Positions 16,609 through 57,000 of a stretch of DNA of 64,000 nt are shown one piece after another. Source of the stretch: a virus (lineage: Duplodnaviria > Caudoviricetes). The first letter of the stretch is position 1. The number at the start of each line of letters is the position of its first letter. Location of the stretch: the IMG/VR virus record IMGVR_UViG_3300042997_002652, positions 1-64,000 of that record; one strand, written 5' to 3'. Both the position numbers and the translations under genes were made by a program. The notes below the pieces were generated by a model that ran no database searches, was not told where the DNA came from, and saw only the letters and a list, made by a program, of their open reading frames with translations.

Positions 16609-16678
16609 AGTATACAGTATTTGGGTAAAGAGTCAAGCCTTTGGCTGAAAATAAAACTCTTTGAAAATCAACAACTTA
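16609..16678 (-). promoter_or_regulatory. Early promoter cassette plus upstream IHF box
   Basis: TTGACT-N16-TATACT (16609-16636); AATCAACAACTTA at 16666-16678. Confidence 0.85.
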
Positions 16679-17050
16679 CATTGACCAATACGTTTCCGAA
16701 GCAGGGGAGCAGCACAGCGGGGTATCAGCGCGTTCCTGAAACTCTTTACCTGACATAAGATTTTTGCGAGTAACCATACGAGCACCGCCATAGCTATTAT
16801 AGCTGCGAATTCGGCTCTGACGGTTGCAGCGAATAACTTGAATATCAACTTTTTCATTCAAAGCATTTTTGGCTTTCATGTAGGTAGACATATCACAGTC
16901 TTCCTCAAGAAACACGTTATCGCCCTTGGTATAGCTGTAATGAGTAATTTTGTCAGCAATATCAAGACGTTCCAATTCGCTATAAGGAACGCGCAACCAA
17001 CCATGACCGGGATCAGAGTAGAACTGAAACTTGCTTTTTGCTTTAGACAT
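16676..17050 (-). CDS. Hypothetical early protein
   Basis: FYSDPGHGWLRVP...FLEEDCD. Confidence 0.75.
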   Translation of the reverse strand: MSKAKSKFQFYSDPGHGWLRVPYSELERLDIADKITHYSYTKGDNVFLEEDCDMSTYMKAKNALNEKVDIQVIRCNRQSRIRSYNSYGGARMVTRKNLMSGKEFQERADTPLCCSPASETYWSM

Positions 17051-38108: not shown

Positions 38109-39116
38109 CTATAAATTATCAAGCCTAGAATATACTACAGTGTTATCGCTACTTTTTGCGTTTTTGTTAAGTGTTTGATTACTTTGTCTTTTACTACTTG
38201 CTACTGTAAGAATATCCGAAATTTGATATCCAAATTCTTTATGATACTTTTCAACATCAACGTTCATATCACGATTTTTAACCTTTCCCACATTCCAGCA
38301 GCTAACTCCATTTTCATTAAGGTGAACTAATCCTAACCTAATAACTTCTCTCAAAAAATCGTCAGCCCAATCTTGATACGTAGACATGTTTTTAATACTT
38401 TGAGTATCTTCGTGTACATACACTTCTAAATCAAAATAGGGAGGACTGGTAAGCACCATATCAACTTTAGGAATGTTATAACGTGACATATTTCTAGCAT
38501 CATCACATATTAACGTGACCTTATCTTGGATTCCGAGAAAGTTTACAATCTTTATTAGATTGTTATATGTTGTAGTGTTTGGTTCAAACCCAATGTAGTT
38601 AGCACCATAGCTGACTGTACCTAACATTCTACCTCCCCAACCTGCACAAGGGTCTAAAACATATTTAGGTTTGTATTTAATACATGTCAGTTTCATCATT
38701 TGAGGACGATACATTGTGTTTTTTGTCATACCACAGCAAAAGTAAATTCCCCGTTTTATCTCACTCAAATACGGAGTACTATGGCTCTTGCGGTTCCAAC
38801 GTAAAATCTTTTCTAAGTTCTTAGCCGTCCATAGACTTTTGTAACTTGTGCCAGTTGCGCTCTCAATATCGTAAAAGTTGGGACAAAAGTGTTCGCTCAA
38901 CTTCATACCTAGGCGACTAGTAGAATTGATACTATCTTCTGTAGTAGTCCAATCGCAAAGCTTTTTCCAATCCTTTCTCATATCTTCATCAGTATAAGAA
39001 AAGTAAAAACTAGTCTGCTCAAGTTCTAGGGCAAGCATGGGTAATGCTGCTTCAAAATCAGCATCACTCATGTTTCTAGTAGAATGTCGTTTGTTTAAAA
39101 TATCACGTAAGAGCAT
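38109..39116 (-). CDS. Amino (N4-C/N6-A) DNA methyltransferase
   Basis: LDPCAGWGGR (motif I) then LTSPPY (motif IV); probable start at 39116 overlapping the upstream stop. Confidence 0.85.
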   Translation of the reverse strand: MLLRDILNKRHSTRNMSDADFEAALPMLALELEQTSFYFSYTDEDMRKDWKKLCDWTTTEDSINSTSRLGMKLSEHFCPNFYDIESATGTSYKSLWTAKNLEKILRWNRKSHSTPYLSEIKRGIYFCCGMTKNTMYRPQMMKLTCIKYKPKYVLDPCAGWGGRMLGTVSYGANYIGFEPNTTTYNNLIKIVNFLGIQDKVTLICDDARNMSRYNIPKVDMVLTSPPYFDLEVYVHEDTQSIKNMSTYQDWADDFLREVIRLGLVHLNENGVSCWNVGKVKNRDMNVDVEKYHKEFGYQISDILTVASSKRQSNQTLNKNAKSSDNTVVYSRLDNL

Positions 39117-39699
39117 TATATCTCTTTTTAAGCATATCAAAGTGCGGCTTAGATATGCTATTTGTTTCGGCAATGAGATTTTCGTTTAGATACTTAATCT
39201 GCAAGCTATCATGATCATAATTCTTGTAACCGAATTCACATACTACTCTTTTGCCAATCCTGGCGCTATCAACTCTCGTCTTGAGTTTGGGCTTAATTAC
39301 CTCGTACGGAATTTCAATGACATACAGGAATCTCCCTTCATGAAAACCGGCGCAAATAACATCACACCCGTCCTTCTTATCCAGCAATTCATTTGTCATA
39401 TCATTGAAATTGCCACTATTGGCACCGATCTTTTGACCTTCAACGATAAACTTAGGCTTAACCTCTTTTTGCTTGCCTGTTAGAGGACAGTAGCCATCCA
39501 TGCCATGCTTTTCCGTATATGAAGTATAATTTAGCATACGCAGTACCATTGCCTCTCTAAGCGTTGATGAATTATTATCACTTAGCATAGCCAACAACAA
39601 ATTGCGATATCCTGGATCTAAATTTTCAAATACGCTATCATTTCCTAAGGCATATTGGATAGCAAGGTCAATATTTTCGTCTGAAAGTAAATTTTTCAT
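39103..39699 (-). CDS. Putative type II restriction endonuclease (PD-(D/E)xK)
   Basis: HGMDG-x9-EVK pattern; translationally coupled to the methyltransferase. Confidence 0.5.
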   Translation of the reverse strand: MKNLLSDENIDLAIQYALGNDSVFENLDPGYRNLLLAMLSDNNSSTLREAMVLRMLNYTSYTEKHGMDGYCPLTGKQKEVKPKFIVEGQKIGANSGNFNDMTNELLDKKDGCDVICAGFHEGRFLYVIEIPYEVIKPKLKTRVDSARIGKRVVCEFGYKNYDHDSLQIKYLNENLIAETNSISKPHFDMLKKRYNALT

Positions 39700-39700
39700 C

Positions 39701-40144
39701 TTAACTCACCTCTGTCCTTCCATCACCGATATCTTTAGTTTGAATTACTCGCATTTGTTGAGCGCGAGTGTCTGGATCTGCTTGTTGCTGTTCATACATT
39801 TCTAGTACTACGTTTCTGCATACTTGTGTAAACCAACGATCTACGATATCTGCATCAGTATCGTCAGGTTTCATTTTGTACCCAGCTTTAATTAAGTTTA
39901 ACACAAACTTATCGTTCCAGTCAAGATCAAATGAACCATTATTAATATCATTTGGATCAACATCAACTTTCAAAATATTGATATATGGGTCACCTTTTGC
40001 GGTTGCTTGTTCTTTTGCGCTTAGTGTGGGTTCAACTGGTTTAGGTTTTTTAGCTCTAGGCTTTGGTTCTTTAACAGGTTTTTCTACTGGCTGCTCTGGT
40101 TGTGCTTCAGCTTTCTTAAATAGATTTTTCAGTTTATCAAACAT
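39701..40144 (-). CDS. Hypothetical protein
   Basis: Probable start MFDKLK at 40144; GSFDLDWNDKFV...DRWF motif. Confidence 0.7.
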   Translation of the reverse strand: MFDKLKNLFKKAEAQPEQPVEKPVKEPKPRAKKPKPVEPTLSAKEQATAKGDPYINILKVDVDPNDINNGSFDLDWNDKFVLNLIKAGYKMKPDDTDADIVDRWFTQVCRNVVLEMYEQQQADPDTRAQQMRVIQTKDIGDGRTEVS

Positions 40145-41156
40145 TAGTTTTCTCCTTAATGTATGTATCGTATAATGCAAAGCTAGCAAGGTTTTTTGCT
40201 TTGCTTTCGCACAGCATGTCGGCCCACTCATTGTGAGTTATAGCCCAATCATTAACCGCTGTGTTCCAATAGTAATCAGAATGAGCGCGAAGGTGTTGTT
40301 TTTTGTGCCCAGTTTCTAATAGTGTAGTAAGATTGGGTAGTGTGTTTTTACAATGATTAACTAAGTAATCTTCGCGTGAAACACTATAATGAATAACAGG
40401 TCTAACACCGCGCCAAGAATCAATCACTCGCTTGATACGATCATCTGTAGCTTCAATATACTCACCTGTTTTCACCCAATGATGATGAATATCTAGGACT
40501 AGTGCAACATGATCTGCAAGCTCAAGTGAAGCATCCAATCCCCATGTCATTTCGTCATTTTCAATAGTGATCATGTTTCTTGCTTCAGGAGACAAACGAG
40601 GCAAAACGTCAATAATACCTTGAGGACCTTTTCTGCCAGAGATATGCACATTGATCTTAAAGTCTTGAAACTGTTTGCCATAGCCCATCATGCGAGCCAT
40701 ATCAACATGATATTCAAATTCTCTAATAGAGTTTTCTACTATAGAGGGAGTTTCCGAAGCTAGCACTGTAAACTGACCGGGGTGAAATGAAAGTCTAACG
40801 TTATGCTTTCTAGCAGTTTCACCAATGGGCGCAAATAGTTGCTCCATGCGCTTTACTACGTCAGGCAGTTTGTAAAAGTATTGCCAATCTTCGTGAGTGT
40901 AGGCTGTCATCATGTCGCTCGTCAACCTCACAATTCTAAGCTCAAGTGGAAGTTTAGCAACACGCATAACAAGATTATGTGTGTGTTTGATGTTAGTTTC
41001 CATTACTTCCCACATTTTGCGTTCAGCTACATTCTTGCCCACTTTTTTCAAGTAAGTAAGAGTAGTGCCGCCAGTGTTAAGACCTTCAACACTTTCAACA
41101 AGACCTTTCTTGTTGATTGCTACAAATTTACACGCAAATCCAATCTTTTTGATCAT
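40137..41156 (-). CDS. uvsE: UV damage endonuclease (UvsE/UvdE)
   Basis: IGFACK; RLSFHPGQFTVLAS; ITIENDE; LDIHHH; IHYS; AHSD; MLCESKAK. Confidence 0.92.
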   Translation of the reverse strand: MIKKIGFACKFVAINKKGLVESVEGLNTGGTTLTYLKKVGKNVAERKMWEVMETNIKHTHNLVMRVAKLPLELRIVRLTSDMMTAYTHEDWQYFYKLPDVVKRMEQLFAPIGETARKHNVRLSFHPGQFTVLASETPSIVENSIREFEYHVDMARMMGYGKQFQDFKINVHISGRKGPQGIIDVLPRLSPEARNMITIENDEMTWGLDASLELADHVALVLDIHHHWVKTGEYIEATDDRIKRVIDSWRGVRPVIHYSVSREDYLVNHCKNTLPNLTTLLETGHKKQHLRAHSDYYWNTAVNDWAITHNEWADMLCESKAKNLASFALYDTYIKEKTNV

Positions 41157-41188
41157 TGTAGATACCCAGTATAATGATAGACTAGTTA

Positions 41189-41216
41189 AGTATACACGGT
41201 TATTTAGAAATGTCAA
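41189..41216 (-). promoter_or_regulatory. Sigma70-type promoter for uvsE
   Basis: TTGACA-N16-TATACT. Confidence 0.75.
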
Positions 41217-42550: not shown

Positions 42551-43393
42551 CTATTTATCTAAAGTAAGCAGTTGTTCAACAGTATACAACTCTACCATAT
42601 ACGGTGAAACATTTTCTAATACACTTGATGGTAAGTCCCCTTTCCTCCTAGAACCTTCTTTAACTTTAAAGTCACAGTTGTTTACTTGTTTAAATATATC
42701 AACCATTTCTCTTACAGTGTGACCGATCCCGTGCCCTAAGCTTTCTACTTTGTTACTAGGAGTTTCAATAGCTAACTTTAATGCAGTACATATTTCCATA
42801 ACATGTACATAATCTCTAACCGCTGTACCGTCCCATGATTCTCTATAGTCAGTACCAAAGATAGTAAACTCATCAGTGTCTCGTGCTTTCATTAAATTAT
42901 ACATTAAGCCGTCAGGATTAGTTGGCTTGATACCATAATGACTACCGATCACATTATAAAATCTAAAAATAGTATAATCCATTGGCTTGTGTACAGTACA
43001 CATTTCTCTTACACAATCTTCTGCTGCCCGTTTACTAATACCATATGCTGATTCACACCCAACCGCTGCTCCAGTAGATGCAAATATAAAGTTGTTAGTT
43101 GGTATTTTATTCATTACATTTGTTGTACCATTTAGGTTAGTAAAATAGTACAGCATAGGCATTTGTTCACTTTCCCCTACATTAACTAATGCTGCTAAGT
43201 GAATAACAGCGTCATATGGTTCAGTTTGATCTGGGATAGTAAACAGTCTAGTAATGTCTACTTGATAAAACTTTTTGATAGGTACTTGAGGTTCTTTAAC
43301 ATCTAAACCATGTATTTCATATTCGTTTTCTAATAGTTTGCAAAGATGTGAACCAATATACCCTGAGCAACCTGTAATTAAAATCTTTTTCAT
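42551..43393 (-). CDS. galE: NAD-dependent nucleotide-sugar epimerase/dehydratase (GalE-like)
   Basis: ITGCSGYIGSH; HLAA; YGISK; RDYVHV. Confidence 0.85.
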   Translation of the reverse strand: MKKILITGCSGYIGSHLCKLLENEYEIHGLDVKEPQVPIKKFYQVDITRLFTIPDQTEPYDAVIHLAALVNVGESEQMPMLYYFTNLNGTTNVMNKIPTNNFIFASTGAAVGCESAYGISKRAAEDCVREMCTVHKPMDYTIFRFYNVIGSHYGIKPTNPDGLMYNLMKARDTDEFTIFGTDYRESWDGTAVRDYVHVMEICTALKLAIETPSNKVESLGHGIGHTVREMVDIFKQVNNCDFKVKEGSRRKGDLPSSVLENVSPYMVELYTVEQLLTLDK

Positions 43394-44745
43394 TATAATC
43401 CTTCAAATAATGCATTTGGTGTATCATCTGTTGGTACAAAAGTTAAATCTTTTGTTAACCATGTATCTTGATCTGTATATATTACTCTAAACTTGTGTTT
43501 ATTAGATAATACGCTTTCAAAGTCCTCTCTTGCTATTTGTGTTCTGTTGAGGTCTTTTATATAGTCTTTGTAATTTACGGTTTCGTAAGTGTTTATCTTA
43601 GCTGTATTAGTTTTTGCTTGTTTAGCTTTAAAGTCAACTAACAACTGTTCCCAGCCTTCTGCAACTTGATCATCTAACGATCTGACGTAATCCAAAGCTT
43701 CAGGAAGTTGATTAATACCAGCTAACGCCAAGATATATTCATGTGCTTGTGATAAACTTGTTTTATGATAGAATTTGCTATCAAAGTTATCTGACCAATC
43801 TTGAGTATCTAGAACTACGCAAGGCATGTGTCCTAAACATTCTAAAAAGGCAAACGGATAGTTTTCTCTTAAACTAGGCATGAAAAATATTTTAGAACTT
43901 TTAATAAAGTCTACTTTTTCACTACCCACTATACCTGCTTTTATTTGATAGTCTGTTATACCTGCTTCTTTAAAAGCTTTTTCAAACTTTTTAGCACCGT
44001 TGGAATTAGTCATTACTTTGCAGGGTAACTTACACTCTTTCATCACTTTAATATATGCTTCAGGGTTTTTACCTTCTTCCCATCTGCCGATAAACAACAC
44101 ACCCGATTTAGTTCCTGCATAGGGTTCTAGTAATTGTCTTTCGCTCATTGGCATTTTTAACAGCTTACAATTAGTAGAACCATGTTTGGTTAATTCGTTG
44201 ATATTTTTTTGACTTTGTGTTCCTATAATAATATCACTAAACTCCATGTGCTTGTTATAGAAGTTGTGATAACTTGATAGAAAAACATCACTACCTTGTG
44301 TTTCTCTAAAGATCATACTGTGTAAATGAGTATAGAACACGATTGGTATGTAGCTGTTTAGAGTCATTGCATAAGCAGCAGACATTGCTTCCTGTGTGTT
44401 ACATATTAGCATATCATAAATGTTTGTTTCAAACCCGATAATAATAGATTTGCGAAAGTTTACTATCTTTTCAAAGTTAATAGTATCACTAAATGCAAAT
44501 GTATTAGTATGGTCAGTGTATCTAAGGTTGTCTGAAGGATAAACAATGTTTGCACCTAATGACTGCAACAGTTCACTAAACTCGTTAGTAGGTTTTTTAT
44601 CTACGATGATATCAACTTTCCATTGTAGTCTTGCACACATTTCAGTAAAACCTTTAGCAAACTGGCCTATCCCGCCGTGAGGGATAAGATGCTGGTCGCT
44701 TATTAAAAATCCAATTCTTTTGTTATATGTTTTTATGTTCCCCAC
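43393..44745 (-). CDS. GT-B glycosyltransferase (GT4-like)
   Basis: PHGGIGQF; FIGRWEEGKNP; ENYPFAFLE (E-x7-E). Confidence 0.85.
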   Translation of the reverse strand: MGNIKTYNKRIGFLISDQHLIPHGGIGQFAKGFTEMCARLQWKVDIIVDKKPTNEFSELLQSLGANIVYPSDNLRYTDHTNTFAFSDTINFEKIVNFRKSIIIGFETNIYDMLICNTQEAMSAAYAMTLNSYIPIVFYTHLHSMIFRETQGSDVFLSSYHNFYNKHMEFSDIIIGTQSQKNINELTKHGSTNCKLLKMPMSERQLLEPYAGTKSGVLFIGRWEEGKNPEAYIKVMKECKLPCKVMTNSNGAKKFEKAFKEAGITDYQIKAGIVGSEKVDFIKSSKIFFMPSLRENYPFAFLECLGHMPCVVLDTQDWSDNFDSKFYHKTSLSQAHEYILALAGINQLPEALDYVRSLDDQVAEGWEQLLVDFKAKQAKTNTAKINTYETVNYKDYIKDLNRTQIAREDFESVLSNKHKFRVIYTDQDTWLTKDLTFVPTDDTPNALFEGL

Positions 44746-45578
44746 CTATTCCCAAAAAGCGGGATATGAAGTCTATCGCTGTATCTTAATCCATGTTTCA
44801 TAGCTAGTTCAGCTACCCGTTGATTGTTTAACCTATATACGCTTTCTACGCCACCGATTGGCATCAAGTAAACAGGACCTTTGAACCCTTCTTTTCTATA
44901 CAATTCAGTTACTTCTATAGCTTCCATAGCATCTTCATCGGTTGCTATAACAAACTTTAAGTAAGTGTATCCTGCATTTTGATAATCTACAACGATTTCG
45001 GGAATAATAGCATCTTCACGTTTTTCACCTGAACAACTTAATTTAGGACTTACTGAAAATGTGATTTCTCTATCCCAATGCTGAGCCGCCCACTCATTCC
45101 TTAAGTAATGTCTAAACTCTTTAAACAATGGTTGTGTGCCATTAGTTTCAAACGTAATCTCTTTTAATGATTGCATCTTTGGATGATTTAATAAGTCAGG
45201 ATAAGATCGTTGCCACCCTAACAAAGGTTCACCACCAGTAATAACCAAATGTTCGTCACGCCATTCTTTAAATGGCAACAGATTAACTATTGCTTCAGCA
45301 ATCGCATCAGTAGTAAGTTTAGGGGATAAGTGTTTAAAGTTTACATCCCAGCTTGCGTAACTGTCACAACCAGTCGTAACTAATGGCAAGTCATTATAGT
45401 TTTTATAGCTTTTAGGATGAATTAGATTTCTTTCGTTACTGATTTCACCTTTAGGCATACCAAATCCTGAACAAGTGAAGTTGCAACCAAATGTTCGTAA
45501 GAATACACTTGGTACACCAGTATATCTGCCTTCTCCTTGTACTGAATAAAATAGTTCGCTGATCTTTATATTAGACAT
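44733..45578 (-). CDS. queE: 7-carboxy-7-deazaguanine synthase (radical SAM)
   Basis: ELFYSVQGEG; FLRTFGCNFTC...GCDS; ITGGEP; ETNGT; SVSPK; RLHI. Confidence 0.93.
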   Translation of the reverse strand: MSNIKISELFYSVQGEGRYTGVPSVFLRTFGCNFTCSGFGMPKGEISNERNLIHPKSYKNYNDLPLVTTGCDSYASWDVNFKHLSPKLTTDAIAEAIVNLLPFKEWRDEHLVITGGEPLLGWQRSYPDLLNHPKMQSLKEITFETNGTQPLFKEFRHYLRNEWAAQHWDREITFSVSPKLSCSGEKREDAIIPEIVVDYQNAGYTYLKFVIATDEDAMEAIEVTELYRKEGFKGPVYLMPIGGVESVYRLNNQRVAELAMKHGLRYSDRLHIPLFGNRWGT

Positions 45579-45774
45579 TTGTATCTCGTTTAGTTTTCAG
45601 GGTCGGGTTCTCTACCGGTCTGCATGATAACTGACTATCACACAAACCGTATCTAGTAGTTTCTGTTATTATCTCATAACCGTTGTAAATTACAACCTTT
45701 TCGGTAGTTTCTGTTTCTAAAAACTTTTTAAAAGAACCAAGTGTGTCCCATTTTAACTTTTTGGGTACATACAT
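45571..45774 (-). CDS. Hypothetical protein
   Basis: 67 aa from MYVPKK; TAATG overlap with the PRTase stop. Confidence 0.6.
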   Translation of the reverse strand: MYVPKKLKWDTLGSFKKFLETETTEKVVIYNGYEIITETTRYGLCDSQLSCRPVENPTLKTKRDTNV

Positions 45775-46322
45775 TACTTCCACCAGTTTTCCCAAGAAAA
45801 CTCTATCCAAGAATCTTCTTCAGCTTTGTTAATAGACAAAGAAGTATAGGCTATATCTTTAAAGTCGCTGGCTTCATTGTTTATCAATGTAGCAAACTTT
45901 ACATTATGATTCCATACTGTATCCCAGGCATACCTTTCATTTGGCATACATGACGATTCCCAGTCTTTCTTAATCCATTTGATAGTTTCACCCGTATCAT
46001 TGATATCATCTACAATCAAGATATTCTTTCTACGTGATACGTCCCAACGTGACTTTTCAGTTTGTCTTATTTCAGTTGACAAGTAGCCAAAAGCATGTTC
46101 AGGCATCCAAGCATTACACTCTTGTTGCGCATGGTCTCTTAAACTAACTCGCAATGTTTCCATTGGCACATTATAATACTGACTGATTAAAAGTGCAGGA
46201 AGTAAACCACCTCGCGTAATACCCACAACGTAGTCAGGTTTATATCCAGACAAAGTTATTTGTCTGATGATATCCATAGTCATTTTTTGTACATCTGAGT
46301 TTGATAACGTTACTGTGTTCAT
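45774..46322 (-). CDS. Type I purine phosphoribosyltransferase (Gpt/Hpt-like)
   Basis: VVGITRGGLLPA; ILIVDDINDTGET PRPP-binding motif; WIEFSWE. Confidence 0.85.
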   Translation of the reverse strand: MNTVTLSNSDVQKMTMDIIRQITLSGYKPDYVVGITRGGLLPALLISQYYNVPMETLRVSLRDHAQQECNAWMPEHAFGYLSTEIRQTEKSRWDVSRRKNILIVDDINDTGETIKWIKKDWESSCMPNERYAWDTVWNHNVKFATLINNEASDFKDIAYTSLSINKAEEDSWIEFSWENWWK

Positions 46323-46323
46323 A

Positions 46324-46788
46324 TTATCCTTCATAAATTGCTGAGTTAGCATCATGTTCAAATACTTCTACGCTTTTAACAGATACTGTTTTGTTTAATA
46401 ATGTGCCTGCTTTTTGGCTTTCGTCTAAAATTTGCGTCATTTTCTTAAAAGCCATTTCAGCAAATCGTTCACATCCAACTGCTGGAACAATTCGCAAATC
46501 AGCTACATGTGTGGGCAAATTCTTTAACTGTTCAAGTTCGGGATCATCTTCAGCTACTAACAAAGTATGATCAAACATGTGTTCTAGCCACTGTTTAAAT
46601 TCTTTAAGCCCGCCAAAATCCATGACCCAGTTTCTTTCATCCAAGCTTTCACATTCAAAGATGATTTTAACACCTATTGAATAGCCATGAAGTAGCGAAC
46701 AATGACTATGAGTAGAACGCCACTGTCTAAAGCAACAGCTTAGTCCCCTGTCATTACCATATGTTTTTGTACTATAAAACTTACCCAT
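46324..46788 (-). CDS. queD: 6-carboxy-5,6,7,8-tetrahydropterin synthase
   Basis: HSHCSLLHGY; WVMDFGGLK; FDHT; VFEH. Confidence 0.9.
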   Translation of the reverse strand: MGKFYSTKTYGNDRGLSCCFRQWRSTHSHCSLLHGYSIGVKIIFECESLDERNWVMDFGGLKEFKQWLEHMFDHTLLVAEDDPELEQLKNLPTHVADLRIVPAVGCERFAEMAFKKMTQILDESQKAGTLLNKTVSVKSVEVFEHDANSAIYEG

Positions 46789-47245
46789 TCTTTCTCTCCG
46801 ATTCTGTTACTCGTTTACGTAAACTACTAGAGCTAAAACTATGATTTCTTTTATTATAAATGATTTCTATGTCAATTGCAAGACAATATTCTTTACCAGT
46901 GAAATCTTTGTCCATGTACTCTGCTCCCAATATACGAACATCTACTGGAAGTATTTTTAGTAAATCAAGCAAGTCTTGTTCAGTTTGGTATACCACAACT
47001 TCATCTACAAACCTACATGAACTTAATTGTATCTGTCGTTCAACGATACTTTGTACTGGTTTGTTTTTGGTGTCAGGTCTATCTATAGTTGGATCAGTTT
47101 GTAATCCAGCGATCAGGTAGTCGCAGTGATTTTTAGCTTCAGCTAACATTGCTATGTGTCCGGCATGAAGAAGGTCAAAAGCAGAAAATACTATGCCTAT
47201 CTTTTTTCCTTCTTCTTTTAATTGTCTAATTACATTAAAGATCAT
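46781..47245 (-). CDS. Cytidylyltransferase (TagD-like)
   Basis: AFDLLHAGH; RPDTKNKPVQ; FSSSSLR. Confidence 0.85.
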   Translation of the reverse strand: MIFNVIRQLKEEGKKIGIVFSAFDLLHAGHIAMLAEAKNHCDYLIAGLQTDPTIDRPDTKNKPVQSIVERQIQLSSCRFVDEVVVYQTEQDLLDLLKILPVDVRILGAEYMDKDFTGKEYCLAIDIEIIYNKRNHSFSSSSLRKRVTESERKNG

Positions 47246-47928
47246 TTCTGAGGTTTTCCCATTCGTGCAATGCTTAGAAACTCTGCTCTTGCTGCTGGAT
47301 CAGTTTTGAAACCTCCACCTAATTTACAAGTTACTGTGCTTGACCCAGTGTCTTCAACACCGCGGCTCTTAACACAATAATGCTGTGCATCTATCATAAC
47401 AGCAACATGTTCAGTTTCTAAAATATAGGAAAGTGCATGGAATACTTGTTCAGTCAGTCTTTCTTGGATCTGAGGACGCTTACTGAAATACTCAACAATC
47501 CGATTGATCTTTGAAAGACCCAGAACCTTTTCCTGGGGTACGTATGCTACAGTAGCAAGACCATCAATGATTACAAAGTGATGTTCACAATTAGATTGTA
47601 CGTTTACGTTGCGTTCAACGACCATTTCGTCATAGCCCATTTTGTTTGCAACAGTAGTACATTTTGGGAATGCATCATAGTCTAGACCCCAAAAGATTTC
47701 ATTAACATACATCTTAGCAACACGCTTGGGCGTTTCTATAAGACTGTCATCAGATAAATTTAACCCGAGGGCTTGCATAATATCGGTAAACTTAGCTTCA
47801 ATGATTTCAATTTTGTCTGTGCGACTTAGATTGTTTTCAACTTGAGGAGTTTCAACTCCCATTTTGACTAGATATTTGTGTATCTTTTGACCCAACTCTG
47901 GATCACATTTTACTTTATTAAATGACAT
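47242..47928 (-). CDS. folE: GTP cyclohydrolase I
   Basis: ETPKRVAKMY; CEHHF; RPQIQERLT; HYCVKSRG. Confidence 0.97.
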   Translation of the reverse strand: MSFNKVKCDPELGQKIHKYLVKMGVETPQVENNLSRTDKIEIIEAKFTDIMQALGLNLSDDSLIETPKRVAKMYVNEIFWGLDYDAFPKCTTVANKMGYDEMVVERNVNVQSNCEHHFVIIDGLATVAYVPQEKVLGLSKINRIVEYFSKRPQIQERLTEQVFHALSYILETEHVAVMIDAQHYCVKSRGVEDTGSSTVTCKLGGGFKTDPAARAEFLSIARMGKPQK

Positions 47929-48008: not shown

Positions 48009-49112
48009 TTATCTCTTGTCAAGAAACACCGAATTAAATTGTTTGTTCACTCTAACAAATGTTGTACACTTTGACAAGTCTTTTAGGCTCGTTGCACCAA
48101 CATAAGTACAAGTACTGCGAACCCCACCTAAGATATCTTGTACTGTTTTAGCTACTGGACCTTTGTATGGAACCTTAACAGTCCTACCTTCTGAACTACG
48201 ATATTCTGCTACCCCGCCATGATGTTTAGTCATAGCAGTATCGGAACTCATACCATAAAACTGAACAAACTGCTTCTTTTCTTCAAGCTTTCCCAAACGA
48301 TTACCGGTTTCAGGGTCAAAGATTATTTGATTGGTTTCGTATACTTCTTCAATTATTTCTCCGCCACCTTCTGTGTGACCAGCAAGCATACCGCCTAGCA
48401 TTACAAAATCTGCGCCACCGCCGAATGCTTTTGCTATATCACCAGGACAAGTACAACCACCATCAGCAATGATATGACCGCCCAAACCGTGTGCTGCGTC
48501 CGCGCATTCAATAATGGCTGATAGTTGAGGATACCCAACACCTGTTTGAATACGAGTAGTGCAAACACTACCAGGACCAATACCCACTTTAACAATGTCT
48601 GCTCCACGTAAAATTAACTCCTGTGTCATATCTGCGGTAACTACATTACCTGCAATAATAGTTTTAGTTGGACATAATTTTCTAACTTTAGCAACAAACT
48701 CACCAAAGTGTTCTGAATATCCGTTAGCTATATCAATACAAATAAACTGTATCATGTCAGGATACTTATAAAGAATACTTTGTAACTTTGTAAAGTCACG
48801 ATCACTAGTACCAGTACTGATAGCAGTATTGTAAGAAAAGAATTTTGAAAAATTATCTTCCAAATCTTCTAAAGAATAACTTTTAACTAAGCAAGTAATC
48901 ATATTATATCCAGCAAGCGCAACTGCTATGTCAAAAGTACCAACACCATCCATGTTTGCAGCTAGGATAGGCACACCAGTCCAATTTGCGTTACTGTGCT
49001 TGAACTGATAAGTTCTTTCCAAACTTACTTCTTTTCTGCTAGACAGTGTTGATCTTTTTGGACGGATTAGAACATCACTGAAATCTAGTTTTACTTCATT
49101 TTCAATACGCAT
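48009..49112 (-). CDS. guaC: GMP reductase
   Basis: [16 protein letters not shown]; DIANGYSE; GPGSVCTTR; ADGGC; FYGMSS; RSSEG. Confidence 0.95.
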
Positions 49113-49113
49113 A

Positions 49114-50313
49114 TTAGTACTTGTTTTCCTTTGTGTGTTTTCTATAATCTGTAGACATACGTAACCATTGCTCGCCTTTGCCTTCTATGATGTCACAAAT
49201 TCTATCAACAGTTTTGTCTGTCCAATCACTGATTTTGCCCATGTTTTTATGAGGTTTATCCAACAAAGATTCTAGTTTGCTGATCATATCTTCTATAGAC
49301 CAGGGCACATACATTCTTTCATGATCGTTAGCAAATACTTCAGGGAAAGAACGATACGCAGGGAATAAGACATTACATCCTAGTGCGTCAGCTTCACTTA
49401 CAGTATTACTAGTCCAATCTTGTAGTGCAGTATTAACTAAAACTCTAGAGTCTGTGAGTAAACGATAGTACTCATTTTTAGACAAGTTTTCATAAATCGT
49501 AAGCAACTTTTCTTCTTGCATAGCTCTAGCCATATCAACAAATTCTTGTTTGTTACTACGCAACGTTGAGCCTGTAAATATAGAAAATTCTATTTCACCA
49601 AACATTTCTTTGGGATATTTAGCATACCATTCTTTGATTAACTGAAGATAAAAGTCTGGATTCTTTTCTTGATCCCAACGTGAAGAAAAGCATACGCGCA
49701 TTTTGCGTTTATTGAATAAGATTAGGTTATGATCTACACGTTCTCTAACTTCTTGCTTATTAAATGCTAAACCAGATACGTTGTAAATGTTTGCAGTCCA
49801 TCCTGCTACTTTCATGTGTGCTACCATTTCTTCGTTTGATGCTAATACAGCACCTTTAGAAATAGAAACAATAGTGTTGACCATTTGTTCGTATTCGCTC
49901 ATCCACTTTTGCATACCCCAAACATGAACAAAGTCATCTGGATCAATAGTTTGTGCTAAACAGCGAACAAAGATACGAGGTCTTAGATTTTCTGGCACTT
50001 GAGTGATAATATATCCCAAGCTTTCAAAACCGGGCTGAAACATATCTTCAAAGTAAATTACGTCTTCATTTGTTACTTCACCCTGCTGCATCATACGAAC
50101 CAAGTTCATCATTTGACTCATAGCAAAGTAACTACGTCCGTGTGCATCTAAAACTTGACCTACTACAATTTGGTTAGAGTCATCAAGAGTTTCGCCCGGA
50201 ACATAAACTACTTTCATCCTTCTATGATCAAATACTCGCTTGTTCCATTCAGTTAATTGAAGTGTGTACCTTGCTTCGTAACTTTCAAGCCCCATGTAAA
50301 ACAGTTTTTGCAT
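49114..50313 (-). CDS. GT-B glycosyltransferase (GT4-like) within the deazaguanine cluster
   Basis: [11 protein letters not shown]; [11 protein letters not shown] (D-x7-E); YRSFPE. Confidence 0.8.
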
Positions 50314-50366: not shown

Positions 50367-50594
50367 TTATCGTGATCCCGAAAGTCTTTCAAGTTGCTGA
50401 GCCCACTGATCTTTTACTTCCTTGCCAGTTAGTAGCTTGCCGTATTGACGCCAGACATAGCTACGATTGCTGTACAAGTCAGCTTCATCAAACCGGTACC
50501 CATACTCTCTACAGAAATTTCTATATTTATCCAAATCATCAAAAACTTTCTGAGTACGCGGATTAGGTTTAATATTGTTAGTTGAACGTGACAT
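50367..50594 (-). CDS. Hypothetical protein
   Basis: 75-aa ORF. Confidence 0.7.
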   Translation of the reverse strand: MSRSTNNIKPNPRTQKVFDDLDKYRNFCREYGYRFDEADLYSNRSYVWRQYGKLLTGKEVKDQWAQQLERLSGSR

Positions 50595-50664: not shown

Positions 50665-51108
50665 TCATCGTGTTAAGCAATTATATTCTATTTCACAACC
50701 GTTTTCATTATCTTCGGCAACAGAGATTACTATTTTTCTCCCAGAATAACGAGTTGCAATTACTTCGTACAAATCATCAGCAATCATTTCGCAACTTTTA
50801 TGATTAAGTTCCAAAACACTATTCTTATACTGATTTTCTAACCAGCGTTTGAATTGGATAAATTCAATATCTCGGTCATTATGGAAAACTTGAATAGCTA
50901 CCTTAAAGTAGAAAATATGTCTATGAGGCCAACCTAAAAAGCTAACATCATACTCATCTTTAGTTTTTAGATTAGGATCAGTGCTAGCATCAGGATAACA
51001 ATGAATACCTTCCTTTTGAAAAGTTACCCAAATCATACGAGTAGCCTTATTTTTGATTTGATTTCTTTGTTCTATCATAGCTATTTCTCTTTGATTAACT
51101 GCACTCAT
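50665..51108 (-). CDS. dpdL: QueD-like T-fold paralog, probable CDG decarboxylase (DpdL-like)
   Basis: LGWPHRHIF fits LxxxHRHxF; RDIEFIQFKRWL; SCEMIA; VAEDNENG. Confidence 0.65.
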   Translation of the reverse strand: MSAVNQREIAMIEQRNQIKNKATRMIWVTFQKEGIHCYPDASTDPNLKTKDEYDVSFLGWPHRHIFYFKVAIQVFHNDRDIEFIQFKRWLENQYKNSVLELNHKSCEMIADDLYEVIATRYSGRKIVISVAEDNENGCEIEYNCLTR

Positions 51109-51314
51109 CTATCATCACCGTAATCCAATCGTTCATGAGTTTCTTCCCATTCTTCTTTTATAAGTCTAGACAGTTCCAAAGAGTACTCATTTTTTTGCTT
51201 TTGCATTTCAACAAGTTTTTGTTTATTGTAATTCTCGTCTTTCATAGCTGCTTGTATCAGAGTAGTAAGACGGTTAATATTTTCTCGCACAAACTGAATT
51301 CTACTTTTATTCAT
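51105..51314 (-). CDS. Hypothetical coiled-coil protein
   Basis: 69-aa ORF. Confidence 0.65.
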   Translation of the reverse strand: MNKSRIQFVRENINRLTTLIQAAMKDENYNKQKLVEMQKQKNEYSLELSRLIKEEWEETHERLDYGDDR

Positions 51315-51327
51315 ATCTTTTCTCTTG

Positions 51328-52884
51328 TTAACTAATACTAAATAAATCAGGATTACCCCACTGCGGTAATACTTTCTTTTCTAACTTATCTATTACCATT
51401 TTATCATGAAGGTCATCACCCTCAAAATTATCCGTAAGTGTAGTCATGTTGTTTACTGCTTTCTTACCAGAAAAGCCCTGACTTCCTGACTGCATTTGCA
51501 TCCAAAACTTGTTATACTGTTCAATAGTATCTAAACTTTCTTGTCTAGTTTTTTTACTAAAGATTTCATCTACGATGTCATTAAAGTGTTTGGGTTCAAA
51601 CTTGTTCATAATCATTTTTGGCATAATGCCCTGCTCGTACCTACGATTAGCTTCTTGAACAGCATAGATGTGTTGATACACATTATGGGCTTGAACTAGT
51701 GTATAACTCAAAGTATCCCAACTTGTTTTAGTTTCTTTACCATGCTGTCCCAAAAAGCCATGACCCCTATAACACAAGTCCTTAATAAGCATTTTATCAG
51801 TTACAGGAGAATCAGTAAATATTTTATGGATGCCGTCAGCTAAAACTGCGTCACTAAACTTTCTATTATCTGTATCATAGTTTTTATTTTCAGCAGTTTT
51901 TTCCATTGAATAGGACCATTTCTTATCATGTTCAATAGAATTATTAAAGTAAACCAAACCTTTTGCTGCTGCGAAAAACGGGCTAGCACAGTCAAATGTA
52001 ATTTGCAAGTTTGGATTGTGATACTTTCTAACTGCACGTTGAATGTCAGTAAACAGAACCGCATACTCTAAGATACTAGTACCCAAACAGTGAATAAGAT
52101 CGTGTTTACCTGTTTCTAGTAATCCATCGTAAATCATGTTTACTATACGTTTGAGCATCAAGTGAATGTCAATTTTATTCTGACCACCAAACGCCCAACC
52201 GTTAAAGTGATTAGTTGGATATACTTTTGGATCACAGTACTTTTTCATTTCAGCATACCATTCATCACTTTGAGTATGAGTTAATCCTTGAAGTACGTTT
52301 AATAACTTACATTCGCCTGTTCTGTTATTGATAAAATACTCATTGTTGATATGAGTAGCTGCAACAGCTTGTTCTATTGTAGAAATACCGTGCTTGTCAA
52401 GTAAGTGTTTGTTTCTAAGAGTTTGAGTAGGAACGTCAAGACACATACCATAGTCCATATAAGTATCCATCCATTTTAGTACTAGTTGACGCTGCTTCAT
52501 AGCTTTAGGACAGTTAGGATCTTTCCAATCAGCTGGCCATTGCCCCTTCATAATCTGAAATCCACCTGAGTCGCCTAACATGAAAGTACCCTTTTCACGC
52601 TTTCTGATAATTGACTCACTTGGATCATCTTTAGTAATGTCTAGATTAGCGTGACCTGCAGAATACAAGCCCCATTTGTACTTGTACAAACCCTGAGTAG
52701 AGTTCAAGAAGTTAAGTGGTTCTACGTCACCATTAAACCCTTGAGGAATTCTAGCAGCATCAAAGTACTGCTCACCTTCTCGTTGTTTGCCTAATCCTGC
52801 GATAAAGAATGAAGACACTGCCGGTAAGAACAGTGCCCATTCTGGATTGTGTGCGTTAGTAAGATTATGCTGGATCTGATCCAT
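51328..52884 (-). CDS. dpdA: TGT-superfamily guanine transglycosylase (DpdA-like, possibly DpdA3 type)
   Basis: DSGGFQ, LDVP, VLQG, AFGG, HCLG, FDCAS and HN motifs in TGT order; no obvious C-terminal CxCxxC zinc site. Confidence 0.8.
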   Translation of the reverse strand: MDQIQHNLTNAHNPEWALFLPAVSSFFIAGLGKQREGEQYFDAARIPQGFNGDVEPLNFLNSTQGLYKYKWGLYSAGHANLDITKDDPSESIIRKREKGTFMLGDSGGFQIMKGQWPADWKDPNCPKAMKQRQLVLKWMDTYMDYGMCLDVPTQTLRNKHLLDKHGISTIEQAVAATHINNEYFINNRTGECKLLNVLQGLTHTQSDEWYAEMKKYCDPKVYPTNHFNGWAFGGQNKIDIHLMLKRIVNMIYDGLLETGKHDLIHCLGTSILEYAVLFTDIQRAVRKYHNPNLQITFDCASPFFAAAKGLVYFNNSIEHDKKWSYSMEKTAENKNYDTDNRKFSDAVLADGIHKIFTDSPVTDKMLIKDLCYRGHGFLGQHGKETKTSWDTLSYTLVQAHNVYQHIYAVQEANRRYEQGIMPKMIMNKFEPKHFNDIVDEIFSKKTRQESLDTIEQYNKFWMQMQSGSQGFSGKKAVNNMTTLTDNFEGDDLHDKMVIDKLEKKVLPQWGNPDLFSIS

Positions 52885-53220
52885 TATTGTCCTTTAGTAG
52901 TATTTTTACTATCTGTATCTTTTCTTCAATATCAGCTTTTTGTTTTAAAAGATCAGCAAAAGTGGGATTGTCTTTTAATTTTTCTATTGCTTTTTCTTCT
53001 GCCATTTTTTACTGGCCCAGTCCATAATCATTCGTGTGTTATAGTCAATATCTATATTAACTGTAGATGATATTTTATACCAAGACGAACCATCGTAAAC
53101 TTCCATATCTGTCCCGTTATATCTAACCATGCCAGCACTATGATTATTCAAACTTACATACGGGCCTGAAGAGCCGCCAGTACTTAATAATCCCAAACCT
53201 GTTGCTATCTTTGTAATCAT
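52865..53220 (-). pseudogene. Hypothetical gene apparently split by a -1 frameshift in an A6 run near 53005
   Basis: Frame 1 stops at WASKKWQKKKQ*; the -1 frame continues MAEEKAIEKLKDNPTFADLL...KILLKDNNGSDPA*. Confidence 0.5.
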
Positions 53221-53951
53221 TTTGACATTGCAGGAAGAATGTAAGAGTACACAGCTAAGCCTGAATCTACTGTGATTTCAGCAGCACCCTGATCAGAGAT
53301 TTTAACTGTTTTATCGCCGGGCAAGTCCATGATAGAAAGAAACACTTTTACAGGCCATTGCCAAGCTTTGGTCATAGTACCAGTTACACCTGCATGAAAC
53401 ACAAAGTTACCTGAGTGAGTAGAAGGATCACCAAAATAAATTTTCAAGTTTCCGCTTTCTGTTTTAGTTGAAAACGTTACTTCTTCACTGTTAGCAGAAG
53501 CTTGCATTTTCAAACGCATAATACCAGCTACTGTGGGTTCAAATTCTACGTTCCAAGCTGCACCCTTAAATGTAACAGTTTTTACTTTGCTTTCTACAAT
53601 TTCTTTAGACATAAGTCTGTAATCATTTACAAAGTCGTTATTCTTTGTAGCAAAGTGAATAGTAGTAGGAACGTCTTCACTATCTCTTGTTTCTCTAACA
53701 ACACTGATAGAAGCATTTTCGTCATACTCAGCTTCAAAACCTAAAATAGTTTTAAGCTTGCCTAGATTGGGCATACCAAAAGTACCAATAGCATCAGCGA
53801 TTGGATGCTTAAAAGTGCCACTGATAATAACGGTCTTATCTTCTGCCATTGCTTCGATCTTAGTAACTTGATCAGTGCCTGTTACTTTTACTAACTCCAC
53901 TACTCCCAAGCCATGTGTATGCTGGATCAAATCTTGTAAAAAATCTTTCAT
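53217..53951 (-). CDS. Putative DNA polymerase sliding clamp/processivity factor
   Basis: 244 aa, two-domain alpha/beta pattern, immediately downstream of polB; assignment rests on size and position. Confidence 0.5.
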   Translation of the reverse strand: MKDFLQDLIQHTHGLGVVELVKVTGTDQVTKIEAMAEDKTVIISGTFKHPIADAIGTFGMPNLGKLKTILGFEAEYDENASISVVRETRDSEDVPTTIHFATKNNDFVNDYRLMSKEIVESKVKTVTFKGAAWNVEFEPTVAGIMRLKMQASANSEEVTFSTKTESGNLKIYFGDPSTHSGNFVFHAGVTGTMTKAWQWPVKVFLSIMDLPGDKTVKISDQGAAEITVDSGLAVYSYILPAMSK

Positions 53952-54032: not shown

Positions 54033-56735
54033 TCAACCAAAAGAAAACAAACTATCAAATGTAGTATTTGTGTCTGTGTTACTTTTCAAGTCCCAGTTTA
54101 GTACACCTAATAGGTTTTCAATCTTTTTATCTACTAGTGTAGTTTCCATTAATGAGTCATCAAACGGTAATTGTTTGAACCAATCTGGAAGTCTAAGCTC
54201 ATCTGTAGGATAAGCAATGGAAGTGAATCCTAACGGATTGGTTTTAAGCTTACACACAACAACTTTCATACCATCTAAAATAGTCATAGAATAATTGTCG
54301 CTATGTGCCTTTTTAAGAAAGTTCCAATTGATAGCTGCACGAACATGCCCCGGCATAGTAGCCTTACCTTTTTTACTTCTAGCTTCTAGTTCGCCGTAAA
54401 AAGTAAGCTTGTTTACTGACTTAGGAGAACCCTTAGTCCAACTAGGCTGTTCGGATAGTTCTCGCTTAAAATCTTTGATACGTTCTATAATATCTTCTTT
54501 GGACTTATTGCTTAGAACCATAGTAAGAACGTCTAGTAAAAACTTTTGAATATATTTAGGCGTATCTGATCTTTTTAGTTCAAGACCCATAGCTTTAATA
54601 TCACCCGTTTTACCATTTACGTCTTTACGCTTGCCTTCTTTGTCATAGATATTTACCGCATAACGCTTTTTCTTGATAAACAAGCCCACGTCACCTATGA
54701 TTTCTCTGCCACCTTTAATGATAGCACCGTTCTTTCTTGGACAATGACATGCACGTTCCATGAACCCGGGAAAGCTATCGTTAACTTGATCAGCAATATT
54801 ATCATATAATTGGACAACTAGTTCTTTGTTCCATTCCATCTTACCTGCGTTAACTTCTTGCTCAATAATAGGCCAAGCTGAAAAATAACCTGAGTCGGTA
54901 TCAGAGTATATCATAGATTCGCCTTCATGATTGTAAGCACCTGTTATAATCTCATTGATCTGAGAATTCATGTGCTTAACAATTTGTCTACCAGTTAAAG
55001 TAACTGACTGACCCAATCGTTTGTCATAGAACCTACAGTGTTCATTTAAGAGTGCACCATAAGCAGAGTTAAGCAAAATCTTTCTTACCAACTGTCGCTT
55101 GTCATAATACTCTTTATCTGTTTCAGTAGTAGCTTCTTTTAGTTTTTTCTGCAAGTCTTTACGTTCAGCATACCAACGAGTAAGTAGACCGGGAATAACA
55201 CCTTCTTGATCACTTCTAAATATAGTACCATTAGCTGATAACATATACGGACTGTGTGAATCAAAAATCATTTTCCATATTTCAGCAGCAGACATTTCTT
55301 GTGATCTACCATCTTCAAAGTCAACAATAAGCATTGTGCCGCGTTCTTGATTCATTACTGAAGTATATTCTAGTGAACCAAACAATCCTTCCCAAAGCAA
55401 TGAACTCATGTCAAGTTCATCATCTTCGTCATAGTTTCGCTTTTCTTTAGCTAGTTCCATTGCTCTATCGTGTAAGAACTTTTCAGTATGTGTTTGTCTA
55501 ATTTGCCCTACAATTGTTTCTGGGGCCATGTTCAAAGCACGAATTGTTGAAGGATACAGTGAGTTAATATCTATAGCTCCCACCCAGTAATGCAATCCTT
55601 TCTTTGGTTGGGCAACATAAGCACCAGCAGCAGCCATTTCGCCTGAATGACCTCTTTGCTTATCTGGCACGATAAGACCTCTAGCATGTGCTTCATTATA
55701 GATAGCCATTTCAATCATAGCTACTGAACCCATTACTGTTGGTAACAATACTGTATTTTCGTGTGCTAGTTGATTAGCCAACTCTAAGAATTTTAGCTTG
55801 TTGTGAATCTTTACTACAAGCATAGTGTCTTGGCGGTTATATCTAATGAATTCTTTGAAGTCACGATTGTATAGTTGATCTAGTGTGCCTTCATATGGAG
55901 TTTTTGTTTCACCAACTTCCATTTCCCCGATAGCATCTAACGAGTAACTGTGTCTGGATTCATAGTTGTACTTTTTATACAACTGAAGATAGTCCATATG
56001 AATTCTACCTACTAAGTCATATGTTTGTTCTTCTTTACCAAATCGTTCGTAAGTTCTTGGTTTAGGTAATTGCCCCATTAAACAGAACTTTCTAGTATCA
56101 TCTTTACTCATGATCTTAGTTACTCTGTTTACTATATATGGAATATCAAATCCTTCTGAGTTCCATCCTGTTAACACATCAGCATCTTCAATTATTTGAA
56201 AGAAAGTTTCAAACATTTCTATTTCACTACGAAACAAAAAAGTGTTTGGAAATTCTGCTACTAGCTCTTGTGCTGTTTCGTCTGTTATGTGTTTAGGTGG
56301 AATAGCCAAACATATAAGTTGATCTAACCAATCCAAGTACAATGCAATTGCTGTCACTGGACTAAAAGGATCACTAGTAGGCGCGTATCCGCGTTCTGGG
56401 GAAAAATCAACCTCAATGTCAAAAAACGCTGTGTGAAGTTTTGGAGCTTCTACACCTAAATAGTTGTCAGATAAACATCTAAAAACAGTGTTAACATCGC
56501 TTTCAAATAACTTCTTACCCGAGTGTATACGCTTTTCTTTTTCAAATTCGCTTTTCTTTCTAGTAGAAAACCTACTTAAAGAGTCACGATAGATAGAACG
56601 ATACTTGCCTTTAGAGTCGGGATAATAAAATACATAGTTAGCAGGGAACTCCTGATAGCTTCTAGTGCCATCAGAAGTTCTTTCTATCACATGTATGCGA
56701 TCATTTTTTGCATCATTGATTGCATCAACATACAT
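54033..56735 (-). CDS. Family B DNA polymerase (T4 gp43-like)
   Basis: Exo FDIEVD, GWNSEGFDIPY, YNRQD; pol DINSLYPS, KILLNSAYG, YSDTDS, KKRYA; probable start MYVDA at 56735. Confidence 0.97.
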   Translation of the reverse strand: MYVDAINDAKNDRIHVIERTSDGTRSYQEFPANYVFYYPDSKGKYRSIYRDSLSRFSTRKKSEFEKEKRIHSGKKLFESDVNTVFRCLSDNYLGVEAPKLHTAFFDIEVDFSPERGYAPTSDPFSPVTAIALYLDWLDQLICLAIPPKHITDETAQELVAEFPNTFLFRSEIEMFETFFQIIEDADVLTGWNSEGFDIPYIVNRVTKIMSKDDTRKFCLMGQLPKPRTYERFGKEEQTYDLVGRIHMDYLQLYKKYNYESRHSYSLDAIGEMEVGETKTPYEGTLDQLYNRDFKEFIRYNRQDTMLVVKIHNKLKFLELANQLAHENTVLLPTVMGSVAMIEMAIYNEAHARGLIVPDKQRGHSGEMAAAGAYVAQPKKGLHYWVGAIDINSLYPSTIRALNMAPETIVGQIRQTHTEKFLHDRAMELAKEKRNYDEDDELDMSSLLWEGLFGSLEYTSVMNQERGTMLIVDFEDGRSQEMSAAEIWKMIFDSHSPYMLSANGTIFRSDQEGVIPGLLTRWYAERKDLQKKLKEATTETDKEYYDKRQLVRKILLNSAYGALLNEHCRFYDKRLGQSVTLTGRQIVKHMNSQINEIITGAYNHEGESMIYSDTDSGYFSAWPIIEQEVNAGKMEWNKELVVQLYDNIADQVNDSFPGFMERACHCPRKNGAIIKGGREIIGDVGLFIKKKRYAVNIYDKEGKRKDVNGKTGDIKAMGLELKRSDTPKYIQKFLLDVLTMVLSNKSKEDIIERIKDFKRELSEQPSWTKGSPKSVNKLTFYGELEARSKKGKATMPGHVRAAINWNFLKKAHSDNYSMTILDGMKVVVCKLKTNPLGFTSIAYPTDELRLPDWFKQLPFDDSLMETTLVDKKIENLLGVLNWDLKSNTDTNTTFDSLFSFG

Positions 56736-56736
56736 A

Positions 56737-57000
56737 TTACTGGACCCTGCCAACAGTCTCCAGAATCGTGTTTAAATCTTCATGATCTTGATTAGTTTGT
56801 GTAAGTGATGACTTGTATGCAGTCTTTACTGCCCGTTTTAGTACGGATGGCTTGATATCTAGCTCTTCTGCAATAGCTTTTATCGTATCCGATAATCCGC
56901 CGTTAAGCGTTTCTATCTCATTTAATACTGAAAGACCCTCATTTATAATCTGGGTCAATTTAGTTTTTTCGTCTTGATTAAATACTCTACCGTTTGACAT
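56737..57000 (-). CDS. GapR/T4 DsbA-like dsDNA-binding protein
   Basis: LSDTIKAIAEELDIKPSVLKRAVKTAYK. Confidence 0.55.
   Translation of the reverse strand: MSNGRVFNQDEKTKLTQIINEGLSVLNEIETLNGGLSDTIKAIAEELDIKPSVLKRAVKTAYKSSLTQTNQDHEDLNTILETVGRVQ

Follow-up and report, generated by a model that had tools for sequence, protein, structure and literature searches.

A probable QueC-independent, DpdL-type 7-deazaguanine DNA-modification cassette with a long, zinc-free TGT-fold protein in an uncultured giant phage

The window, that is the whole stretch of DNA analyzed here, comprises the first 64 kb (64,000 nucleotides) of the IMG/VR virus record IMGVR_UViG_3300042997_002652, which is 266,967 bases long and estimated to be 76% complete. 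Within it, we studied a string of genes headed by a family B DNA polymerase (polB), in which a 518-aa protein with the fold of tRNA-guanine transglycosylases (TGTs) and a 147-aa homologue of DpdL lie together with genes of 7-deazaguanine synthesis. All genes around this locus are on the minus strand. Downstream from polB follow, in this order, a clamp-like gene, a 78-aa open reading frame (ORF), the 518-aa TGT, a 69-aa ORF, the DpdL homologue, a 75-aa ORF, the glycosyltransferase GT399, GMP reductase, FolE, a nucleotidyltransferase, QueD, a Gpt-like phosphoribosyltransferase (PRTase), a 79-aa ORF, QueE, a second glycosyltransferase (GT450) and a GalE-like epimerase (Table 1). A megablast search of the locus against cultured phages gave no match. 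In our best reading, which we consider probable, the string is a QueC-independent, DpdL-type cassette for the modification of DNA with 7-deazaguanine. This type of pathway is already known; the base-swapping enzyme comes from a large family for which we found no name in the literature searched.

The 518-aa protein carries the motifs DSGGFQ at residues 105-110 and FDC at residues 297-299, and it contains seven cysteines, yet no CxCxxC. A script check of these positions bore out the first-pass annotation of the locus, which had described both catalytic aspartate motifs and no obvious zinc-binding motif. Pfam, PHROG and NCBIfam models did not match the protein, and neither phmmer nor a 59-sequence profile found a TGT among PDB sequences; the TGT fold is visible only by structure and profile-profile comparison. 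In the AlphaFold (AF2) model (pLDDT 89.7), residues 12-427 form a TGT core and residues 470-518 are of low confidence. Foldseek matched this model to the TGTs of Z. mobilis and human (E ~3e-7), and comparison with bacterial, archaeal and human TGTs gave VIA Z values of 18-19.4 over ~300 residues with a root-mean-square deviation of ~4.5 Å. Bacterial DpdA is not among the 50 VIA matches listed, which speaks neither for nor against a relationship. The model thus confidently predicts a TGT-type TIM-barrel fold.

Across the family alignment, which holds 59 members with 26-40% identity to the 518-aa query, D105, S106, G108, D150, P152, H265, G268 and D298 are invariant. The three aspartates correspond to those that are invariant in TGT and DpdA, where they serve as general acid/base, base-edge reader and nucleophile (PMC10164549). 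In the proposed mechanism, D105 would act as the general acid/base, D150 would read the base edge and D298 would be the nucleophile. The TIM-barrel TGT fold and the three active-site aspartates are common to the 518-aa family, the bacterial DpdA of S. Montevideo and tRNA-guanine transglycosylases. A structural zinc site, CxCxxC...H, is conserved in the latter two (PMC10164549), whereas CxCxxC was found in 0 of the 59 aligned members of the 518-aa family. In the hhalign alignments, the family's DSGG and SYDS segments pair with their counterparts in DpdA2 and in the GR7B type, and the three-cysteine motif of the related TGT-domain protein from Vibrio phage GR7B faces non-cysteine residues of the 518-aa family. 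The zinc site of the TGT fold would accordingly be dispensable in a whole subfamily.

To place the protein among the DpdA types, the profile of the 518-aa family was compared with each named protein or type by hhalign. The GR7B type reached a probability of 98.7% (E = 4e-16), the 424-aa protein of phage ACP17 96.5%, and DpdA2 of Vibrio phage nt-1 (YP_008125322) 94.0% (E = 1.5e-7, 167 columns); DpdA3 of Cellulophaga phage phiST (CGPG_00065) reached 55.8% over 81 columns, and DpdA1 of phage 9g 0.6%. The ACP17 protein is itself a DpdA2, with 37% identity to that of nt-1 (E = 1e-50). Against viral models, Foldseek matched DpdA2 of nt-1 with E = 2e-9 and DpdA3 of phiST with E = 1e-2. A hidden Markov model (HMM) of the 518-aa family found members in PA5oct (E = 6e-155) and ACP17 (E = 1e-8) and nothing in nt-1, 9g or phiST. 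DpdA2 of nt-1 is therefore a remote relative, which hhalign and Foldseek match and the family HMM misses; identities to the DpdA types are only 12-16%. The DpdA2 of nt-1 and its ACP17 homologue are long phage TGT-like proteins as well (424-464 aa), are likewise missed by the Pfam TGT model, and share a DSGG...D...H.LG...SYDS core with the 518-aa family, the relationship being remote. These scores define a separate, long, zinc-free family that is closest to DpdA2-like forms and is not DpdA3. It is large, with 824 clusters at 50% identity (E of 1e-3 or better) and more than 6,400 at 90% identity.

An identity as DpdA1 was rejected on the hhalign result and on the silence of the family HMM in 9g. 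DpdA3, at which the first-pass annotation had hinted and from which it had inferred that much or all of the guanine may be replaced, was also rejected: in addition to the low hhalign, Foldseek and HMM results, BLASTP gave no match to the phiST protein. Since the TGT is not DpdA3, the association of DpdA3 with complete replacement cannot be transferred to this phage. At least three kinds of transglycosylase accompany DpdL: DpdA3 in phiST, DpdA2 in ACP17 and the 518-aa family in PA5oct. A second long phage TGT-like family, which is the GR7B type and occurs in P. putida and Xanthomonas jumbo phages and in Motura, keeps the zinc motif. In Burkholderia phage BCSR5, a member of this type lies ~4 kb from a DpdL homologue (record positions 11602-16819).

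The motif LGWPHRHIF, which had been noticed in the 147-aa gene from the letters alone, occupies residues 58-66 of its product, as confirmed by script. No Pfam model (PTPS included) or NCBIfam model matched this protein by sequence, and a profile of DpdL relatives found nothing among PDB sequences. Using tblastn, we found homologues in 29 cultured phages, including DpdL of ACP17 (50% identity, E = 2e-34) and a match in phiST (32.5%, E = 8e-7) that falls exactly on CGPG_00067, the gene named DpdL by Cui et al. 2023 (PMC10516641). DpdL is defined by the change of the QueD motif CxxxHGH to LxxxHRHxF and by its co-occurrence with DpdA, FolE, QueD and QueE in the absence of QueC (PMC10516641). Aligned with DpdL and QueD proteins, the motif of the 147-aa protein is in register, and H62, E107 and E132 are invariant. 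Its AF2 model (pLDDT 80.8) resembles E. coli QueD, SCO6650 and other proteins of the PTPS fold (Foldseek E ~4e-4, TM-score 0.70, probability 1.0). The 147-aa protein is a DpdL homologue, which upholds this part of the first-pass annotation; the decarboxylase activity suggested along with it is a prediction from sequence. At 90% identity, a protein search returned at least 8,000 matches for DpdL.

FolE, QueD and QueE are encoded in the same operon as the TGT and DpdL, so that synthesis up to 7-carboxy-7-deazaguanine (CDG) is fully encoded. QueE is divergent and has an insert of ~34 residues between cluster cysteines 2 and 3 (CX3CX34C); C32, C36 and C71 are invariant in comparison with other phage QueE proteins. 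QueE of PA5oct has the same cluster insert, whereas those of ACP17, phiST and 9g do not have this layout.

Table 1 Features of the gene string, given as positions in the window.
Feature	Position	Strand	Evidence or remark
Family B DNA polymerase (polB)	54033..56753	-	heads the gene string
244-aa sliding-clamp-like protein	53217..53951	-	annotated clamp of phage Phosso, 35% identity (E = 5e-40)
518-aa TGT-fold protein, candidate DNA guanine transglycosylase, DpdA-like, long, zinc-free	51328..52884	-	fold and invariant Asp
69-aa ORF between TGT and DpdL	51105..51314	-	poorly conserved; 16/80 related loci
147-aa DpdL homologue, QueD-like T-fold, proposed CDG decarboxylase	50665..51108	-	phrog_17812, E = 2e-31
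75-aa small conserved protein after DpdL	50367..50594	-	37/37 close relatives
GT399, 399-aa GT-B/GT4-like (GT1-type) glycosyltransferase	49114..50313	-	Pfam Glycos_transf_1, E = 7e-6
GMP reductase, optional cassette member	48009..49112	-	NF003470, 560 bits; about half of relatives
FolE, GTP cyclohydrolase I	47242..47928	-	PF01227, E = 4e-61
154-aa cytidylyltransferase-like nucleotidyltransferase, similar to RfaE domain II/TagD	46781..47245	-	PF01467, E = 7e-12; TIGR02199, E = 5e-23
QueD, CPH4 synthase	46324..46788	-	PF01242, E = 4e-19; phrog_2389, E = 9e-40
195-aa Gpt-like (xanthine/guanine) PRTase, optional	45774..46361	-	PF00156, E = 2.5e-12; NF006613, E = 9e-9
QueE, CDG synthase, divergent	44733..45578	-	five QueE NCBIfam models, none reaching its trusted cut-off (E = 2e-15 to 1e-9)
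GT450, 450-aa second GT1-type glycosyltransferase	43393..44745	-	PF00534, E = 2e-6
GalE-like NAD-dependent sugar epimerase	42551..43393	-	TIGR01179, E = 2e-47, below cut-off

We counted synteny in 80 related IMG/VR loci, using as denominators those long enough to cover the genes in question. In 54 of 54 loci, the TGT is preceded by polB and the clamp-like gene, always with the clamp-like gene between polB and the TGT, and in all 37 informative ones it is followed by DpdL, the 75-aa ORF and GT399. Longer loci continue with FolE, the nucleotidyltransferase, QueD, QueE, GT450 and the epimerase. Even TGT family members with only 27-30% identity are placed after polB and the clamp-like gene, and phage 9g shows the same order of polB, clamp and transglycosylase with the unrelated DpdA1. 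This recurring arrangement hints that base exchange may be functionally tied to the replisome. Additionally, the DNA of Pseudomonas jumbo phage PA5oct (Wroclawvirus) resists restriction at G-containing sites, from which its authors concluded that G is modified (PMC12191111). We take DNA to be the probable target of the TGT, on account of this restriction resistance and of the constant placement of the gene beside polB and the clamp-like gene. The 75-aa protein, which matched no family and does not resemble the ORF that PA5oct has at the equivalent position, may be a partner of the pathway.

That the window lacks QueC, QueF and Gat-QueC, on which the first-pass annotation had built its prediction, was confirmed with Pfam models and a PP-loop scan. 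The only match of the Pfam QueF model was a cross-match below threshold to FolE, which is likewise a T-fold protein, and no ORF in the window of at least 120 aa has a SGGxDS PP-loop. Over the whole record, the Pfam QueC model matched only at 239,535-240,086, outside the window. A canonical QueC was found neither in the record nor in the 80 related loci; the Pfam QueC model also found nothing in PA5oct, ACP17, Phosso and phiST, and it scored E = 6e-54 in the control phage nt-1. The match outside the window lies in a divergent 231-aa QueC-like PP-loop ORF (record positions 239,415-240,110, ~190 kb from the cassette) that carries SGGLDS and a C-terminal CGxCxxC. This weak candidate bears on the condition, set in the first-pass annotation, that a queC elsewhere in the genome, with preQ0, ADG or G+ in the DNA, would refute the prediction.

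This ORF scores 39 bits on Pfam QueC (cut-off 22), the match being limited to model positions 145-209, and 30.3 bits on TIGR00364, far below the trusted cut-off of 150.3. Its best relative of solved structure in the PDB is the CBASS protein Cap9, not QueC, and it adjoins an HNH endonuclease. The same search of IMG/VR returned 2 relatives for this ORF compared to 168 for the TGT. The protein had no match in five long related contigs, in which the QueC model gave only generic matches to PP-loop N-termini, and it is absent from PA5oct and from every DpdL-bearing cultured phage checked. Its sole homologue in a cultured phage is in RsoM2USA, a genome without FolE. Stand-alone QueC-like phage proteins have been set apart as another subfamily (Hutinet et al. 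2019). On these sequence comparisons, we read the 231-aa gene as a probable accessory and not as the missing QueC.

In the pathway that we propose, FolE, QueD and QueE would convert GTP to CDG, and the DpdL homologue would remove the carboxyl group of CDG to give 7-deazaguanine (DG). The 518-aa TGT would then exchange guanine in phage DNA for DG by double displacement, and the Gpt-like PRTase and GMP reductase, where present, may recycle the guanine released by this exchange. Gene identities, folds, conserved residues, synteny and the absence of QueC were observed directly; we infer the DpdL chemistry, DNA as the target, which base is inserted and how much of the guanine it replaces. The phage DNA most likely carries a 7-deazaguanine core.

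The closest precedent is phiST, which encodes FolE, QueD, QueE, DpdL and DpdA3 without QueC and in which all G is replaced by DG in its DNA form, dDG (PMC10516641); dDG made by a DpdL-type pathway has been proven only in phiST and two close relatives. phiST has the same QueC-less gene set beside polymerase genes, a homologous DpdL with the LxxxHRHxF motif and a T-fold, and a presumed inserter of the TGT superfamily. This inserter, however, is the 259-aa DpdA3, which is unrelated by sequence to the 518-aa TGT, and the phiST cluster includes a MazG-like gene but lacks a glycosyltransferase, whereas the cassette in the window has two glycosyltransferases, the nucleotidyltransferase, the epimerase, and the optional PRTase and GMP reductase. 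The closest cultured relative of the cassette is that of PA5oct (EST35_0311-0324), with the order polB, clamp-like gene, long TGT (EST35_0316, 34% identical), glycosyltransferase (EST35_0317), DpdL (EST35_0318, 59% identical), PRTase and QueE, and likewise without QueC. It differs in the placement of FolE, which lies elsewhere, and in that we saw neither GMP reductase nor a cytidylyltransferase within it. ACP17 pairs a DpdA2 type with DpdL and a GT399 homologue, and nt-1, which has QueC, inserts preQ0 and G+. We did not find the chemical identity of the modified G of PA5oct in the literature searched; the cassette gives a gene-level explanation for it. Overall, the locus joins the QueC-less logic to a different transglycosylase family, and this combination keeps a constant place next to the replisome genes in an abundant, uncultured lineage of giant phages; the chemistry should be directly measurable in the cultured relatives PA5oct and ACP17.

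Several points weigh against this reading. No curated TGT model matches the 518-aa protein, and its family is without the structural zinc site of TGT and bacterial DpdA. Decarboxylation of CDG has never been demonstrated for any DpdL, and co-expression of dpdL and dpdA from phiST or ACP17 in E. coli did not yield dDG (PMC10516641). The record holds the QueC-like 231-aa ORF, and the host or the absent quarter of the genome may supply QueC. Finally, a pathway to plain dDG has no use for the conserved glycosyltransferases, the nucleotidyltransferase or the epimerase.

Both ACP17 (E = 3e-14) and PA5oct (E = 1e-12) have a homologue of GT399 next to DpdL, and in Phosso a glycosyltransferase known by annotation only lies beside DpdL. 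Of 24 informative relatives, 23 carry the nucleotidyltransferase, and GT450 follows QueE in relatives. Judged by sequence, GT399, the nucleotidyltransferase, the epimerase and GT450 look like a kit for sugar activation and transfer. Because a glycosyltransferase is conserved beside DpdL, the "unsubstituted" dDG of the first-pass annotation is not assured; the core may be left plain or be further decorated by GT399. The PRTase and GMP reductase co-vary: 10 loci have the pair, 12 lack it and 2 have GMP reductase alone, a pattern that may simply represent two clades. Among the ESM Atlas feature neighbours of GT399 are bacterial clusters named for tRNA-queuosine alpha-mannosyltransferase (score 0.97), which is a lead only; with a cut-off as lax as E = 10, the Pfam model QTMAN_N still matched neither GT399 nor any of its homologues.

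The strongest competitor, which is possible and clearly less likely than a plain 7-deazaguanine cassette, is that dDG is only an intermediate and that GT399, fed by the nucleotidyltransferase, the epimerase and GT450, glycosylates the base or the DNA to give a glycosylated 7-deazapurine. Besides the conservation of GT399 and the nucleotidyltransferase described above, it is favoured by the absence of a glycosyltransferase gene from the cluster of phiST, the phage with proven plain dDG. For the failure of ACP17 dpdL and dpdA to produce dDG in E. coli, the authors suggest that further enzymes may be required (PMC10516641), and a conserved sugar transferase may explain this failure. Additionally, END nucleases, which target hypermodified DNA, restrict PA5oct, but they also cut phages with non-glycosylated deazaguanine (PMC12191111). 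Moreover, DG offers no obvious hydroxyl for glycosylation, and the sugar genes could serve glycosylation of the host envelope or the virion. A bolder combination, in which the 518-aa protein founds a large, zinc-free, replisome-tied DpdA subfamily and a GT399-type transferase, a companion of DpdL in phages as unrelated as this lineage, PA5oct, ACP17 and Phosso, yields glycosylated 7-deazaguanine in DNA, is put forward tentatively. If true, this base would be the purine counterpart of the glucosyl-hydroxymethylcytosine (glucosyl-hmC) of T4; we found no report of glycosylated deazaguanine in DNA in the literature searched.

The remaining explanations change the base, the route or the substrate. 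If QueC activity came from the 231-aa protein, the host or the absent quarter of the genome, CDG would be turned into 7-amido-7-deazaguanine (ADG) or preQ0 and inserted by the TGT. The motifs of the ORF, its Pfam score above the cut-off and the incompleteness of the record speak for this, as does the fact that Campylobacter phages reach ADG with a QueC homologue (PMC10516641). We regard it as unlikely, given the partial Pfam match, the low TIGR00364 score, the resemblance to Cap9, the distance to the cassette and the rarity among relatives; under such a scheme DpdL would also have no role. Insertion of CDG itself (dCDG in DNA), with DpdL acting on DNA or doing something else, has a basis in the authors' suggestion that DpdA3 may insert CDG and in the weak insertion of CDG by DpdA2 of VH7D (PMC10516641). 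It is quite unlikely, as phiST DNA contains dDG and no dCDG, and the modelled DpdL is, according to the authors, a small T-fold protein that binds the free base (PMC10516641). A route before replication, in which the Gpt-like PRTase makes a deazaguanine nucleotide for the polymerase and GMP reductase drains the GMP pool, would account for the co-varying presence of both genes inside the cassette and for the PRTase in the PA5oct cassette. Both are missing from about half of the relatives, however, whereas the TGT is in every one, and inspection of the cassette revealed no dedicated kinase or dGTPase. As optional genes, the PRTase and the reductase fit a salvage of guanine freed in the exchange better than this nucleotide-level route, which we consider very unlikely. 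The least probable explanation by our judgement, and a highly improbable one, is that the 518-aa protein, like TGT-related enzymes of the Cap10 type, has tRNA or a protein as its substrate instead of DNA. Among solved structures, the 518-aa model is indeed matched best by tRNA TGTs, and the QueC-like protein resembles Cap9. The PDB, however, is dominated by tRNA TGT entries, and sequence models of TGT do not recognize the 518-aa protein; among named proteins it is nearest to the phage DpdA2 type, and the gene is fixed beside polB and the clamp-like gene in a lineage whose cultured relative PA5oct has restriction-resistant DNA.

Downstream of the cassette, at window positions 38109-41216, we additionally observed genes for a 354-aa DNA N4/N6-methylase-like protein and a UvdE-like UV-damage endonuclease.

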